A stretch of 35,336 nucleotides of DNA from a virus, in the UHGV virus genome UHGV-0373725; one strand, 5' to 3'. This document shows, piece by piece, positions 19,377 to 22,917 of this stretch. The notes under the pieces are model-generated. The model saw nothing but the letters and a program-made list of their open reading frames with translations. It was not told the origin of the DNA and ran no database searches. Each line of letters begins with the position of its first letter. The first letter of the stretch is position 1. The position numbers and the translations under genes were made by a program.

Positions 19377-19404
19377 GCCGGGGGATCCCTCCCGGCCTTT
19401 TTTC
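19377..19404 (+). terminator. Intrinsic terminator immediately after the capsid gene
   Basis: GCCGGG-ggatccct-CCCGGC followed by CTTTTTT. Confidence 0.6.
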
Positions 19405-19419: not shown

Positions 19420-19983
19420 ATGGCTTCCAGTATCTCTATCTGTTCTAACGTACTGCTGGCGCTCGGCGCTCATCCCATTAACAGCTTCGACGAAGCGACC
19501 GAACACGCCCGCCTGTGCTCCAATATTTACCCTACCGTACGCAATGACCTGCTGCGAAAACATCCATGGAACTGCGCGGTAAAACGCGTCGTGCTCTCAC
19601 CGTCCAGCACCGCGCCCGCGTTTGGTTTCGGCTACCAGTTCCCGCTGCCGGGCGATTTAATCCGGATCCTGTCCGTTGGCCGTGAGTATGAGGATATCGG
19701 GTACCGCGTTGAAGGAAACCGCCTGCTGGCGAATCAGAACGTAATTTATCTGCGCTACCTGTTTCGTAACGAGGATGAATCGACGTGGGATTCGTCGCTG
19801 GTCAATCTGGCCGAAGCGTTCATGGCCGCAAAGCTGGCGTACGCCGTCACCGGCTCCGCGAGTCTGCGCGACAGTCTGACGCAGGAAGCTGCATTCCTTC
19901 TTCGCCAGGCCAAATCTATCGACGGACAGGAAGAACCGCCGGAAACGCTGGACGGCTATCCAACTTATGAATCGAGGTTCTGA
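19420..19983 (+). CDS. Tail tubular protein A-like (T7 gp11 position; tentative)
   Basis: 187 aa, immediately upstream of and overlapping the large tail-tube gene; call is by synteny only. Confidence 0.4.
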   Translation: MASSISICSNVLLALGAHPINSFDEATEHARLCSNIYPTVRNDLLRKHPWNCAVKRVVLSPSSTAPAFGFGYQFPLPGDLIRILSVGREYEDIGYRVEGNRLLANQNVIYLRYLFRNEDESTWDSSLVNLAEAFMAAKLAYAVTGSASLRDSLTQEAAFLLRQAKSIDGQEEPPETLDGYPTYESRF

Positions 19984-21974
19984 TGCGCGCGAACCTAATA
20001 AAAACCAATTTTACCGCGGGTGAAATTTCCCCGCGCCTGATGGGGCGTGTTGATATCGCCCGCTATGCCAACGGTGCAAAAATTATCGAAAACGCGGTGT
20101 GCGTGGTGCAGGGCGGTGTCGTTCGCCGACCGGGTACGCGCTTTGCCGCTGCCGCTAAATATGGTGACCGGACAGCACGACTGATCCCCTACGTCTTTAA
20201 CCGCTCGCAGGCGTACATGCTCGAATTTGGCGACGGGTATCTGCGCATCTACCAGAACGGCCGGCAGCTGGTAAACGACGATAATACCCCGTATGAAATC
20301 GCCAGCCCGTACACCGTCGATATGTTGTCTGAGGTGAATTACGTGCAGGGCGCTGACACGATGTTTTTAGTGCACCAGAGCGTCCCGCCGCACCGCTTGC
20401 AGCGTAAGGGGCAAACTGATTGGGTACTGGAAGCCGCGCCGTTTATCGTGGAACCATTCGACGAAATCCGCGACACGCCGGAGAAATGGTGTAAGCCATC
20501 GGTTAAAGAATTCGTCGGCTCAGAAATCACGCTGACGCTCAGTGATGCCGAACCCGCAGATGATGACGATTCCCCCGCGTTTACTGGTACCGGCTGGATA
20601 TCGGAGGACGTTGGTTCGTACGTTCGCATTAACAGCGGTCTGGTGCTAATTAAGAGCATCACCAGCGCGCAGATTGCTGTCGGCACCATCCGCACCGATT
20701 TAAGCGCAACGCAGGCGGCATCCCCCGGAGCCTGGACACGTGAAGATACTGTCTGGACGGAGGAATTTGGCTACCCCGGCGCGGTGACGCTGTACCAGCA
20801 GCGGCTGGTTCTGGCTGGTTCCCCGCAGTACCCGCAAACAATCTGGTGGAGCGAAACCGGCGTTTACCTGTCGTTTGAGCTGGGAACGGACGACGACGAC
20901 GCGATCAGCTTTACGCTGTCTTCTGACCAGTTAAACCCGATCGTGCATCTGGCGCAGATGAATACGCTTATCGCGCTGACGTACGGCGGCGAGTTTACAA
21001 TCACTGCCGGCAGCGACGCGGCGATCACCCCGACCAATATTTCGGTAAAAAATCCCAGCCCGTACGGCTGCAACAGCATTCGCCCGGTTCGTGTCGGTAC
21101 CGAAATTATGTTTATCCAGCGTGCCGGGAAAAAACTGTATGCCGTGGCGTATGACCCCGACAGCTACGTTTCGTATTCCGCCAATGATTTAACGGTGCTG
21201 GCCGAACACATCACGGCCGGCGGCGTCCTCGATATGGCGTATCAGCAACAGCCTGATGCGTTCGTGTGGCTGATCCGCGCCGATGGCGTACTGGTGACGA
21301 TGGGTATCGACCGGGCGCAGGATGTAGTCGCATGGTCACGCCAGATCACCGATGGCGTTTTTGAATCGGTGGCGAGTATTCCCTCGGAAAGCGACGACGT
21401 GATTTATGTTCTGGTGCGCCGGGAAGTTAACGGCCAGACCGTTCGTTATGTTGAAGTATTCGACAGCAACCTGAATACCGATTCCGCAGTAACCGGCTCC
21501 AGTTCAGAAGGTGCCACCACGTGGACAGGTCTTTCTCACCTCAATGGAAAAACGGTTGATGTGGTGGCCGATGGTTCCGTGATGCCGCAGGCAACGGTAA
21601 CAGACGGGCAAATCACTCTCAGCCGCAAAGCGAAAAAAATCGAAGTAGGCCTGCATTACGAAACCACCATCCAGACGCTGACGCCGGAAATCTCAACGAC
21701 CGAAGGCACCACGCAGAACGCCCGCAAGCGTACCAGCGAAGTCACGCTCCGCTTTATGGAAACCACTGGCGCGGAGTGCAACGGTCAGGTGATCCCCTTC
21801 CGTACCTTCGGCCCAAAAATCCTTAACCAGCCCGCGCCACTTTTCACCGGTGATCATTATTTCGGGAAACTTGGCTGGGAGCGCGGGGAAGACACTTTGA
21901 TTATTCAGCAACGCCAGCCGCTGCCGTTTCATCTGCTGGCGATTATTTTCACGTTCTCCAGCAACGGGGGCTAA
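19983..21974 (+). CDS. Tail tubular protein B-like (T7 gp12 position)
   Basis: 663 aa; N-terminal pattern GEISPRLMGRVDIARYANGAKIIENAVCVVQGGVVRRPGTRF typical of podovirus tail-tube proteins; synteny. Confidence 0.5.
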   Translation: MRANLIKTNFTAGEISPRLMGRVDIARYANGAKIIENAVCVVQGGVVRRPGTRFAAAAKYGDRTARLIPYVFNRSQAYMLEFGDGYLRIYQNGRQLVNDDNTPYEIASPYTVDMLSEVNYVQGADTMFLVHQSVPPHRLQRKGQTDWVLEAAPFIVEPFDEIRDTPEKWCKPSVKEFVGSEITLTLSDAEPADDDDSPAFTGTGWISEDVGSYVRINSGLVLIKSITSAQIAVGTIRTDLSATQAASPGAWTREDTVWTEEFGYPGAVTLYQQRLVLAGSPQYPQTIWWSETGVYLSFELGTDDDDAISFTLSSDQLNPIVHLAQMNTLIALTYGGEFTITAGSDAAITPTNISVKNPSPYGCNSIRPVRVGTEIMFIQRAGKKLYAVAYDPDSYVSYSANDLTVLAEHITAGGVLDMAYQQQPDAFVWLIRADGVLVTMGIDRAQDVVAWSRQITDGVFESVASIPSESDDVIYVLVRREVNGQTVRYVEVFDSNLNTDSAVTGSSSEGATTWTGLSHLNGKTVDVVADGSVMPQATVTDGQITLSRKAKKIEVGLHYETTIQTLTPEISTTEGTTQNARKRTSEVTLRFMETTGAECNGQVIPFRTFGPKILNQPAPLFTGDHYFGKLGWERGEDTLIIQQRQPLPFHLLAIIFTFSSNGG

Positions 21975-22426
21975 TGATGATCCGTAATGCAACCGCCGGT
22001 GATATTCCGGCGCTTATCGAACTGGGAACCCGGATGTACCTGGAATCCCGCTATTCCGAAAACTCACCCTTTGACGCGGACAAATGCGCGGAACTGGCTG
22101 AGAGCCTGATTTATTCCCCCGCCGGATGCGTGCTGGTGGCAGAGAAAAACGGCCTGGTGATTGGCTGGCTCGGCGGCGGCATCGCGGAGCAGTTTTTTTC
22201 CCGCCAGTTGATGGCGTTTGAATATGGCCTGTTCGTCGCTCCGGAGTACCGGGGCGGCAGCGCGGGCCCACGGCTGGCCCGTGCATTTATCGAATGGTCG
22301 AAAGAACACGGCGCCGCAGTGATCAACATGGGGATCACCACGGGCGTCCATGCCGAACGTACTGGCCAGCTTTATTCCCGCCTCGGTCTGCAACGTACCG
22401 GGCTGCTTTATTCGATGGAGGTTTAA
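21974..22426 (+). CDS. GNAT-family N-acetyltransferase inserted in the virion module
   Basis: 150 aa; acetyl-CoA binding motif region (FVAPEYRGGSAGPRLARAFIEWSKEHGA); start and stop overlap neighbouring structural genes. Confidence 0.75.
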   Translation: MMIRNATAGDIPALIELGTRMYLESRYSENSPFDADKCAELAESLIYSPAGCVLVAEKNGLVIGWLGGGIAEQFFSRQLMAFEYGLFVAPEYRGGSAGPRLARAFIEWSKEHGAAVINMGITTGVHAERTGQLYSRLGLQRTGLLYSMEV

Positions 22427-22428
22427 CG

Positions 22429-22917
22429 ATGTGTACAGGTGTTGAAATCGCACTGGTGGCTTCTTCGGTTCTCGCTGCTGGCGGGGCAGTGGCCAGCGGC
22501 CAGCAGCAAAAGAAAATGGCGAACTATCAGGCCGCGCAGGCTGAAGCCGACGCCGAAGCATCAAAAGCAGCGGCAAAAGTTGAAGCGGAGCGTATTCGTA
22601 AAGCCGGTCGCCAGCAGGCATCTGCCGCCAATGCTGCGTTGGCAGCTTCAGGCGTTGAGACGGGAGAGGGAACGGCGCTCCGTGTCACGTCAGGTATTGC
22701 AGGGGATGCGGAGCAGGACGCCTATCAGACAATCCTTAATGGCGTGAATTCTTCTAATCGCCTGCAGGCGCAGGCACAAGCCGACAGGATCAGCGGCAGT
22801 AATGCGGCGACAGCGGGGAATATTAGTGCTGGCAGTTCATTACTTAGTGCTGGCGGAACTGCATACAGCGGCTGGAAAAAAGCAAAAACAGGCAAATACG
22901 GTTTATATGCGGAGTAA
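22429..22917 (+). CDS. Internal virion (ejection) protein, T7 gp14-like
   Basis: N-terminus MCTGVEIALVASS...QQQKKMANYQAAQAEA resembles T7 gp14 MCWAAAIPIAISG...NAQAKMIAAQTAAG; GGAGG Shine-Dalgarno. Confidence 0.6.
   Translation: MCTGVEIALVASSVLAAGGAVASGQQQKKMANYQAAQAEADAEASKAAAKVEAERIRKAGRQQASAANAALAASGVETGEGTALRVTSGIAGDAEQDAYQTILNGVNSSNRLQAQAQADRISGSNAATAGNISAGSSLLSAGGTAYSGWKKAKTGKYGLYAE

Follow-up and report, generated by a model that had tools for sequence, protein, structure and literature searches.

Acetyltransferase-family genes at the IVP-A position, beside the ejection-protein genes of podoviruses, were described in 2016 (Hardies et al. 2016, PMC4819975). In that study T7 IVP-A, gp13, was found to match acetyltransferases, and P22 gp14 was called an IVP-A homologue. 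T7 gp13 is needed for morphogenesis and is not retained in virions, as reported by Kemp et al. 2005 and cited in PMC4819975. The GNAT of SIO1 (SIO1 pc40, cobaviruses) has likewise been equated with T7 gp13 (PMC6775973). Another phage GNAT is Rac (gp28) of LUZ19, which belongs to the phiKMV-like phages and brings about cleavage of RNAP alpha. The Rac phenotype depends on the acetyl-CoA pocket, and the effect is genus-specific, the LKA1 homologue being without it (PMC7552054).

Here we analysed a 35,336-nt stretch of viral DNA (UHGV-0373725, hereafter the window), in which a GNAT gene is embedded in a virion-protein operon. The element is a temperate prophage of Klebsiella type whose virion module is T7-like, and the gene is an ordinary member of the described podovirus family, the usual occupant of its slot and the counterpart of T7 gp13. 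The original prediction had implied that a GNAT in a virion operon is an oddity; the same slot is the norm for many podoviruses, as already described (PMC4819975, PMC6775973).

Genomic context of the GNAT gene

The window carries an integrase, a DnaB-like helicase and lambdoid regulators, and no phage RNA polymerase was found among the window ORFs tested. Megablast of the window against the phage collection gave no match. The closest annotated DNA is an E. coli prophage (23GD11002) with 79% identity, and near-identical RefSeq prophages already annotate the gene as GNAT. All features described here lie on the + strand. Just after the capsid gene there is a terminator-like GC hairpin followed by a T run (19377–19396; 8 pairs, 7 of them G-C). 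It is the best-ranked terminator-like site and is probably the upstream boundary, or an attenuator, of the tail/ejectosome transcription unit. The first gene after the hairpin encodes tail tubular protein A, the adaptor (19420–19983; phrog_394, E = 3.3e-60), and the second encodes the 663-aa tail tubular protein B, or nozzle (19983–21974; PF25675 Phage_nozzle; phrog_376, E = 1.3e-220). The GNAT-fold gene follows at the IVP-A position (21974–22426). Downstream of it lies the gene for IVP-B, a T7 gp14-like ejection protein of 162 aa with the N-terminus MCTG (22429–22917), which matches phrog_418 'internal virion protein' (E = 1.5e-41) and, weakly and below cutoff, PF24072 T7_gp14 (E = 3.8e-4). 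The gp15 position is taken by a 903-aa ejection protein with a lytic transglycosylase (SLT) domain (22923–25634; PF01464, E = 1.2e-9; phrog_1044), and the series ends with a gp16-like large internal virion protein of 967 aa (25634–28537; phrog_342, E = 2.7e-194; phrog_16310). The gene order therefore corresponds to that of T7, with the window gene in the slot of gp13, and the location between the tail-tube gene and the gp14-like gene given in the original prediction is confirmed by the PF25675/phrog_376 match upstream and the phrog_418 match downstream.

No convincing + strand terminator was detected between the hairpin and the end of the gp16-like gene, and no promoter or terminator of the GNAT gene's own was found. 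Co-expression with the structural proteins, as originally proposed, can fairly be assumed, because the genes are tightly packed in a late virion/ejection-protein operon and no convincing terminator separates them. The GC content of the GNAT gene is 0.60, against 0.54–0.59 for its neighbours. At the upstream junction, TAATG, the ATG at 21974 has 1 nt in common with the tail-B stop codon and would yield a 150-aa protein. A second ATG at 21977, yielding 149 aa, is better spaced from a Shine-Dalgarno-like GGGGG run read from the sequence (21966–21970), which stands 3 nt before the first ATG and 6 nt before the second. Both start forms occur among the 80 relatives, the 450-nt form, without the first Met, in 44/80 and the 453-nt form in 35/80. 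At the downstream junction, the stop codon (22424–22426) is clear of the next gene, which starts at 22429 after a 2-nt spacer and whose apparent GGAGG ribosome-binding site (22417–22421) lies inside the 3' end of the GNAT gene. Of the overlapping start and stop codons that had been claimed, the start overlap is thus possible, by 1 nt, and the stop overlap does not exist.

The gene is under strong purifying selection (dN/dS ~0.07). The order tail B, GNAT, gp14-like, gp15 and gp16 is kept in 80/80 relatives found via the GNAT, as far as the contigs reach, and in 77/79 relatives found via the tail-B protein, the two exceptions being large deletions. The same slot is filled in Yersinia YeP5, Acinetobacter TPWB-05 and Celeribacter P12053L by members of the protein family phrog_1249 or close relatives. 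In SP6-like, Colwellvirinae and phiKMV-like phages, the homologue instead lies just upstream of the portal gene, and phrog_1249 members stand at this pre-portal position in SP6, Paso, Oiolarie, Njord and HJG. In contrast to the podoviruses of the published family (PMC4819975, PMC6775973), the window is a temperate, integrase-carrying, lambdoid-regulated Enterobacterales prophage in which no phage RNA polymerase was found. The Met-Cys N-terminus of IVP-B was considered as a substrate mark and rejected. The window group, TPWB-05 and the T7-likes have it, and it does not co-vary cleanly with the GNAT because it is absent in P12053L, L256, SP6, LUZ19 and HJG.

GNAT fold and apparent acetyl-CoA signature

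The window gene is a genuine GNAT-fold acetyltransferase-like gene. Its product matches the Pfam models PF00583 (E = 3.8e-11; 43.7 bits against a cutoff of 20.7) and PF13508 (32.9 bits against a cutoff of 27), so the HMM support for the fold that the original prediction had named as a check is there, both scores exceeding the gathering threshold. The sole PHROG matched is phrog_1249 'acetyltransferase' (E = 1.4e-47), with residues 1–149 aligned to profile positions 8–156 of 180. The protein is thereby a direct member of this large phage family, which also takes in SP6 gp28, P12053L gp44 and the TPWB-05 protein. The Acetyltransf_1 and Acetyltransf_7 Pfam models were both matched by 17/17 phrog_1249-type members tested. 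Literature searches returned neither virion proteomics nor biochemistry on any phrog_1249 protein. The AlphaFold2 model of the window protein (pLDDT 92.4) has the canonical topology, taken here as a mixed α/β fold in the order β1-α1-α2-β2-β3-β4-α3-β5-α4-β6-β7; its elements are E2–5, H8–24, H26–29, H35–47, E51–58, E61–73, E76–88, H97–111, E114–119, H127–136, E140–142 and E145–149. Pfam, PHROG and the model therefore agree on the 150-aa GNAT-family ORF that had been called at 21974–22426.

A Foldseek search against the PDB gave 837 matches at E ≤ 1e-3, and the best 50 of the 837 are almost all named acetyltransferases or GNATs. Viral GNAT matches numbered 183, marine podovirus proteins among them. 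Among the matches listed, the TM-score reaches 0.85 to YncA/PAT-type GNATs, and the best solved structures are cellular GNATs (YncA/phosphinothricin-acetyltransferase, AAC(3)-I and RimI-annotated proteins; Foldseek E about 1e-9, TM 0.66–0.85); PDB 4j3g is also related to the window protein by phmmer (E = 1.1e-5). These cellular enzymes have the geometry of motif A and motif B in common with the window protein, but they differ in that identity is merely 14–24%, the genomic context is wholly unlike, and no curated NCBIfam equivalog is reached by the window protein (best 19.6 bits against cutoffs of at least 86). A type II toxin-antitoxin GNAT toxin (TacT/AtaT/ItaT) was also considered and rejected: there is no adjacent small antitoxin, the neighbours being the 663-aa nozzle protein and the gp14-like protein, and the window protein matched none of the PADLOC defence-system models.

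We then turned to motif A, defined as the pyrophosphate-binding loop Q/R-x-x-G-x-G/A after strand β4. In the window protein it reads R93-G-G-S96-A-G98, with the fourth-position Gly replaced by S. This position is variable across the family (S/T/D/L/R/M), while every phrog_1249 member has G or A at position 6. R93 and Y134 do not vary in an alignment of phrog_1249 members, LUZ19 Rac, P22 gp14 and T7 gp13, in which the gp13 row is unreliably aligned. Since the near-canonical loop and the motif-B Tyr (Y134) are kept, acetyl-CoA binding and acyl transfer are probable, and the residues suggest that the window protein probably retains acetyl-CoA binding. The prediction carries some uncertainty because the fourth motif-A glycine is replaced.

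Relationship to T7 gp13 and P22 gp14

T7 gp13 is a divergent, degenerate GNAT-fold protein in the same slot. A model of P0070, which is 97% identical to gp13, has a pLDDT of 93.9 and GNAT topology, so that gp13 and the window protein have an acetyltransferase-like fold in common. Using hhalign, a 21-sequence GNAT profile aligned with a deep gp13 profile at P = 8.4e-5 over 118 colinear columns, the best control (reversed and 30 shuffled) giving P = 0.04. This link emerged only when the gp13 profile was enlarged with 137 representatives; with shallow profiles, comparing the GNAT family with T7 gp13 alone or with a second shallow profile, the hhalign match covered just 15–16 N-terminal residues. 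The fold and the profile-level alignment, together with PMC4819975, contradict the statement in the original prediction that gp13 is unrelated.

The two proteins nevertheless belong to separate sequence families without HMM cross-match. The GNAT-family HMM found 0 of the 137 gp13 relatives, and PF11090 (Phage_T7_Gp13) matched 0/17 window-family members, even at E ≤ 10. A Pfam scan of the 137 gp13 relatives gave PF11090 in 137/137 and one weak Acetyltransf_1 match (E = 0.0017), which alone is not significant. In addition, neither the acetyl-CoA loop (R-x-x-G-x-G/A) nor the motif-B Tyr is conserved in the gp13 family, whereas the window protein keeps the Tyr and a near-canonical loop. The genes also differ in arrangement: a dedicated promoter, phi13, serves T7 gene 13, while the window gene directly adjoins the tail-B gene.

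P22 gp14 (gene 14, 'head morphogenesis'; DUF2824, PF11039) is 151 aa long, near the 150 aa of the window protein. The micro-layout of its gene is that of the window gene: 1 nt is shared between its start and the stop codon of the preceding tail gene 26, and its end is separated from the IVP-B gene 7 by a 2-nt spacer. Local similarity is found between the two proteins, with PEIRGFS / GQMYCAMIGLKRVG in P22 gp14 against PEYRGGS / GQLYSRLGLQRTG in the window protein. The hhalign comparison of P22 gp14 with the GNAT profile gave a plausible alignment over β4-α3-β5-α4 that was not significant (P = 0.075–0.14), and the link drawn in the literature is not significant here, at P = 0.075. Relatives of P22 gp14 from the locus search were all at least 94% identical and of no use for a profile, and with 54 DUF2824 homologues the comparisons with the GNAT and gp13 profiles were still non-significant. 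A phmmer search of P22 gp14 against the PDB gave a spurious glyoxalase match alone.

Candidate roles of the GNAT protein

With a confidence slightly above even, we favour the reading that the window gene supplies IVP-A in a T7-like ejection-protein operon, which by analogy would be a late, non-virion morphogenesis factor that probably binds acetyl-CoA. Its product, a small cytoplasmic GNAT-fold protein, would be synthesised late, at the same time as the tail tube and the gp14/gp15/gp16-like ejection proteins. Like T7 gp13, it would help the ejection proteins or the internal core to enter the particle in a functional state during morphogenesis, and would be left out of the finished virion. Unlike gp13, it would bind acetyl-CoA and move an acyl group to a phage assembly substrate, most economically a neighbouring ejection protein. 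Acetylation of a virion protein, the first option in the original prediction, may be correct. On this view gp13 would descend from an acyl-transferring protein of this kind and have become a pseudoenzyme. The more specific form of this proposal, in which an IVP-A of ancestral type, still active as an enzyme, adds an acetyl or other acyl group to an ejection protein ahead of packing, for example at the N-terminus of the gp14-like protein, and gp13 is the pseudoenzyme remnant, is tentative, and we think it has only a modest chance of being correct. A morphogenesis function would have to be carried over from T7 gp13 across a very distant relationship, which counts against the proposed role.

The protein could also act as a non-catalytic assembly chaperone or scaffold, with the GNAT fold kept as a binding module and no acyl transfer. 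T7 gp13 seems to be a precedent, being a protein with the fold, without the conserved R-x-x-G-x-G/A loop or motif-B Tyr, and yet required for morphogenesis as cited in PMC4819975; the canonical fourth Gly of motif A, moreover, is not conserved in phrog_1249. We consider this unlikely, as very divergent members (28–35% identity) retain R93, Y134 and a G or A at position 6 of motif A, all 17 members tested score on both acetyltransferase models, and the relative Rac needs its acetyl-CoA pocket for function (PMC7552054). The original prediction had offered another option, that the protein is packaged and injected to modify a host target; it would enter the cell along with the ejection proteins and act when infection begins. 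The gene does adjoin ejected-protein genes and is probably co-transcribed with them. This option fares poorly, and we regard it as remote: T7 gp13 was reported not to be retained in virions (Kemp et al. 2005 as cited in PMC4819975), and virion mass spectrometry led to phiRIO-1-like acetyltransferase-family genes being classed as non-structural (PMC4819975). A similarly embedded gene of the Bcep22-like phage JC1 is named just 'acetyltransferase', while its neighbours are named virion-associated proteins, and a compact, stable 17-kDa α/β domain is unlike the ejection proteins, which are largely helical and have to unfold on exit. Acetylation of a small molecule (a polyamine, an aminoglycoside-like compound or an amino-acid analogue), by a moron or by an enzyme that adjusts the cytoplasm or polyamines for DNA packaging, would agree with the closest solved structures and sequences among the matches listed, which are small-molecule GNATs (AAC(3)-I, YncA/phosphinothricin-type and the DpA polyamine acetyltransferase), and genes in similar positions have been termed morons or auxiliary metabolic genes by some authors (PMC9144972, PMC6918029). 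It is very unlikely in our view, given that no NCBIfam equivalog is reached, that the gene lacks a separate promoter and terminator and resembles its neighbours in GC content, and that a fixed late-operon position across very different hosts is unlike moron behaviour.

A late, host-directed enzyme resembling LUZ19 Rac was judged quite unlikely. Rac and the window protein are both small phage GNATs at the edge of a structural module, if distantly related. Rac stands at the pre-portal position, where phrog_1249 members are found in the five phages listed above; its main PHROG match is phrog_3986 (E = 2e-66), its only secondary match is phrog_1249 (E = 4.9e-4), and its phenotype requires the acetyl-CoA pocket. 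Membership of the window protein in the Rac family (phrog_3986) was rejected, as it matches phrog_1249 alone. The slots also differ, since the Rac gene follows the gene for the phage RNAP and precedes that for the portal, whereas the window gene adjoins IVP-B and is not downstream of an RNAP gene. Furthermore, Rac acts on the host by a mechanism sensible only in a phage with its own RNAP, and its effect is genus-specific, being missing in the LKA1 homologue. With no phage RNAP found among the window ORFs tested, and with lambdoid replication and regulation genes (integrase, DnaB-like helicase), the late genes probably need the host RNAP, whose destruction would be self-defeating. Rac is the sole characterised GNAT at the pre-portal position and targets the host, not the virion (PMC7552054), an observation that also counts against the morphogenesis role.

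As for the proposed IVP-A role, the correction worth keeping is that T7 gp13 is not unrelated to the window protein; it occupies the same slot and has a degenerate form of the GNAT fold. In the enterobacterial prophage versions the acetyl-CoA signature appears from the residues to be intact, and they would therefore be tractable entry points to IVP-A function. If the reading of an active, acylating IVP-A is correct, the T7 gene 13/P22 gene 14 class, long without explanation, would gain its first molecular function, and true acyl transfer may be required for building the podovirus ejectosome core.

Gene arrangement and prophage context

The GNAT gene lies at 21974..22426 (+) and encodes 150 aa with the N-terminus MMIRNATAGDIPALIELG. 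The preceding tail tubular B gene (19983..21974, +) ends in a TAA stop at 21972-21974, which has one base in common with the first GNAT ATG (TAATG). A second in-frame ATG is present at 21977, for which a GGGGG run at 21966-21970 is spaced better, and the shorter form without the first Met occurs in 44 of 80 close homologues. At the 3' end, a 2-nt spacer separates the stop codon (22424-22426) from the gp14-like gene, which starts at 22429 and has its GGAGG, as read from the sequence, at 22417-22421. The overlapping start and stop codons of the original prediction are thus present at the start (1 nt) and absent at the stop. The tail B, GNAT and gp14-like genes are packed end to end.

The window is a temperate prophage. 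Its non-virion genes encode a tyrosine integrase, repressor-type regulators, a RepO-like protein and a DnaB-like helicase, and its T7-like virion module comprises a T7-type portal, capsid, tail tubular A and B, gp14-like and gp16-like proteins, an SLT-bearing protein at the gp15 position, a T7-type terminase and a T7 tail-fibre N-terminal domain. The window ORFs tested did not include a phage RNA polymerase gene. Among annotated relatives, the nearest is a prophage adjoining yecA in E. coli 23GD11002 (79% nucleotide identity), in which the GNAT counterpart is already annotated as 'GNAT family N-acetyltransferase'. Proteins 96-97% identical to the window GNAT include P0005, named from Klebsiella quasipneumoniae, and further homologues belong to Klebsiella or other Enterobacterales.

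Directly 3' of the capsid gene, a strong terminator-like hairpin (19377-19396; 8 pairs, 7 of them G-C, then a T run) recalls Tphi, which follows gene 10 in T7, and suggests that read-through to the tail and ejection genes is attenuated. From this hairpin to past the gp16-like gene, no convincing + strand terminator was observed, which, with the end-to-end packing, supports the predicted co-expression with structural genes. At 0.60, the GNAT gene has nearly the GC content of its neighbours (0.54-0.59) and therefore does not resemble a recently acquired moron. Elsewhere in the window, the 3' part of the SLT-domain gene at the gp15 position (24750-25650) has a GC content of 0.41-0.43, against 0.50-0.60 in the rest of the scanned stretch, suggesting a mosaic, horizontally replaced C-terminal part. 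A 144-aa ORF on the - strand (28542-28976), between the gp16-like and terminase genes, has no Pfam match and may be a moron; the E. coli relative carries a - strand hypothetical protein at the equivalent place.

GNAT fold and conserved placement

The window protein matched Pfam Acetyltransf_1 with 43.7 bits (curated threshold 20.7; E=3.8e-11), exceeded the curated threshold of Acetyltransf_7 and matched the phage 'acetyltransferase' family phrog_1249 across its full length (E=1.4e-47). An AlphaFold2 model built from 22 homologues (mean pLDDT 92.4) has its strands and helices in the order that is canonical for GNATs. These results confirm the GNAT assignment, for which an HMM search had been named as the test. 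Foldseek with this model gave 837 PDB matches at E<=1e-3, the top ones among those listed being YncA/phosphinothricin-type, AAC(3)-I-type and RimI-annotated GNATs (TM up to 0.85), and 183 matches among predicted viral structures, with marine podovirus GNATs at the top. None of the NCBIfam equivalog models or defence-system models was reached. As judged from its codons, strong purifying selection acts on the gene (median dN/dS 0.07 against 79 homologous IMG/VR ORFs).

In each of the 80 IMG/VR relatives retrieved via the GNAT, the genes run portal, capsid, tail A, tail B, GNAT, gp14-like, gp15, gp16, as far as the contigs reach. In a separate sample of 79 loci retrieved via the tail-B protein, a full-length GNAT lies directly 3' of tail B in 77, so that the gene is kept in related prophages, a comparison proposed at the outset. 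The two exceptions carry deletions that begin within the GNAT gene and remove the ejection-protein genes, and are therefore defective elements, probably decaying prophages. These IMG/VR deletions (L226:4495-4604 and L202:3481-3825) start at residues 19 and 113, respectively, and fuse the GNAT to the C-terminal part of a gp16-like gene or the end of a gp15-like gene.

Among distant phages, a phrog_1249 gene fills the same slot in Yersinia YeP4-6 (65% identity), Acinetobacter TPWB-05 (34%) and Celeribacter P12053L. In SP6 (gp28), Aeromonas HJG, Pseudomonas Njord and Oiolarie, and Rhizobium Paso, the GNAT homologue instead precedes the portal gene at a distance of one to three small ORFs, and in SP6 and HJG, whose loci reach that far, tail B directly adjoins IVP-B with no gene between. 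Podovirus late modules thus regularly include a phrog_1249 gene, in one of two alternative positions. A small ORF follows the pre-portal GNAT homologue in SP6 (gp28; L002:9001-9681) and LUZ19 (Rac; L172:4535-5249), the LUZ19 one being gp29, which overlaps the GNAT gene and carries the annotation of a virion structural protein. A 45% identical relative on a Logan SRR20363597 contig (L256:3001-3908) has two tandem GNATs (150 and 152 aa), both matching Acetyltransf_1, between tail-B-like and IVP-B-like genes, which points to duplication of an IVP-A gene.

Relation to T7 gp13 and P22 gp14

T7 gp13 belongs to other families (Pfam PF11090, phrog_308), and shallow profile comparisons gave no link between it and phage GNATs; sequence evidence alone for their kinship is weak. 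A model of P0070, a protein 97% identical to T7 gp13, has a pLDDT of 93.9 and the order b1-a-a-b2-b3-b4-a3-b5-a4-b6-b7, which is that of GNATs. After the gp13 profile was deepened with 137 representatives by exhaustive HMMER search, hhalign aligned it with the phage GNAT profile colinearly over 118 columns (P=8.4e-5, probability 60%); among the controls, a reversed alignment and 30 column-shuffled alignments, none was better than P=0.04. With the shared slot, these results overturn the statement that the internal protein gp13 is unrelated. As gp13 is related in both fold and position, the window gene is its counterpart and not its replacement. The link reproduces published work (Hardies et al. 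2016, PMC4819975; PMC6775973), the cobavirus paper having equated the SIO1 GNAT with T7 gp13 (PMC6775973). Hardies et al. describe T7 IVP-A as matching acetyltransferases and, citing Kemp et al. 2005, as needed for morphogenesis but not kept in virions. The exhaustive search also matched proteins of 878-5796 aa (P0193, P0207, P0208, P0211, P0217, P0326), each with a profile segment of about 50 residues in 4 to 30 repeated stretches; these may be repeat proteins in which a similar strand-turn motif recurs.

P22 gp14 is an IVP-A homologue according to Hardies et al. (PMC4819975). Its gene (L091:8911-9369; 151 aa) shares the micro-layout of the window gene, with a 1-nt start overlap with the stop of the preceding tail gene and a 2-nt spacer before the IVP-B gene 7. 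When P22 gp14 is compared with the window protein, the strings PEIRGFS and GQMYCAMIGLKRVG resemble PEYRGGS and GQLYSRLGLQRTG. Profile comparisons were not significant (P=0.075-0.14), and the link is literature-based.

Catalytic signature and possible roles

Aligned with solved GNATs, the loop after b4 of the window protein reads R93-G-G-S-A-G98, equivalent to R-G-G-G-I-G in 4j3g and Q-G-K-G-L-G in YncA. In phrog_1249 members with 28-35% identity, R93 never varies, the sixth loop position is always G or A, and the fourth-position Gly is variable. Y134 in the motif-B helix (LYxRLG) is likewise invariant; in many GNATs this Tyr site is the general acid position. In contrast, the gp13 family conserves neither the loop nor the Tyr, which is replaced by Phe, and the R-L-S-G-K-A string of T7 gp13 at the loop is not kept among its homologues. 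From these residues, the window protein has probably kept acetyl-CoA binding, while gp13 is likely to be a pseudoenzyme.

We lean modestly towards a window GNAT that is made late, stays in the cytoplasm and serves morphogenesis of the ejection-protein module from outside the virion, probably by transferring an acyl group to a phage assembly substrate. That the protein is a chaperone with no catalytic activity at all is rather unlikely. A host-directed shut-off enzyme like Rac, the LUZ19 GNAT that triggers cleavage of host RNAP alpha (PMC7552054), is unlikely too: Rac falls in another PHROG with phrog_1249 just a weak secondary match, its gene sits after a phage RNAP gene, its effect is genus-specific, and such shut-off would be self-defeating in a phage whose late genes depend on host RNAP, as those of the window probably do. 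The nearest PDB neighbours agree with a small-molecule role; this or a moron role is nevertheless improbable, being at odds with a fixed late-operon position in hosts as unlike as Klebsiella, Acinetobacter and Celeribacter. The proposed packaged and injected effector appears very improbable, given that gp13 is reported not to be retained in virions and that the phiRIO-1-group genes are classed as non-structural.

For the favoured morphogenesis factor, the IVP-B N-terminus is a reasonable candidate first substrate. The gp14-like N-termini compared lie at 22429-22440 in the window and, among other loci, at L006:3729, L004:9456, L253:1919 and L255:1913. Met-Cys is the start in the window group (MCTG, seen in each of the 79 N-termini that could be recovered from its 80 relatives), in TPWB-05 (MCNG) and in T7-likes (MCW). 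IVP-B starts with Met-Ala in SP6, LUZ19 and HJG, whose GNAT gene precedes the portal gene, and also in P12053L. We had considered Met-Cys a companion of an adjoining GNAT; P12053L and L256 break this rule, having the GNAT beside an IVP-B without N-terminal Cys, and the pattern is not evidence for the substrate.

Except for the overlap at the stop codon, the earlier observation is real; its interpretation holds for a GNAT co-expressed with virion genes and fails in the contrast with T7 gp13. The GNAT gene belongs to an already described kind. Its interest lies in being a version that looks catalytically intact and is carried by an inducible enterobacterial prophage, which would make it well suited to studying what the IVP-A class does.
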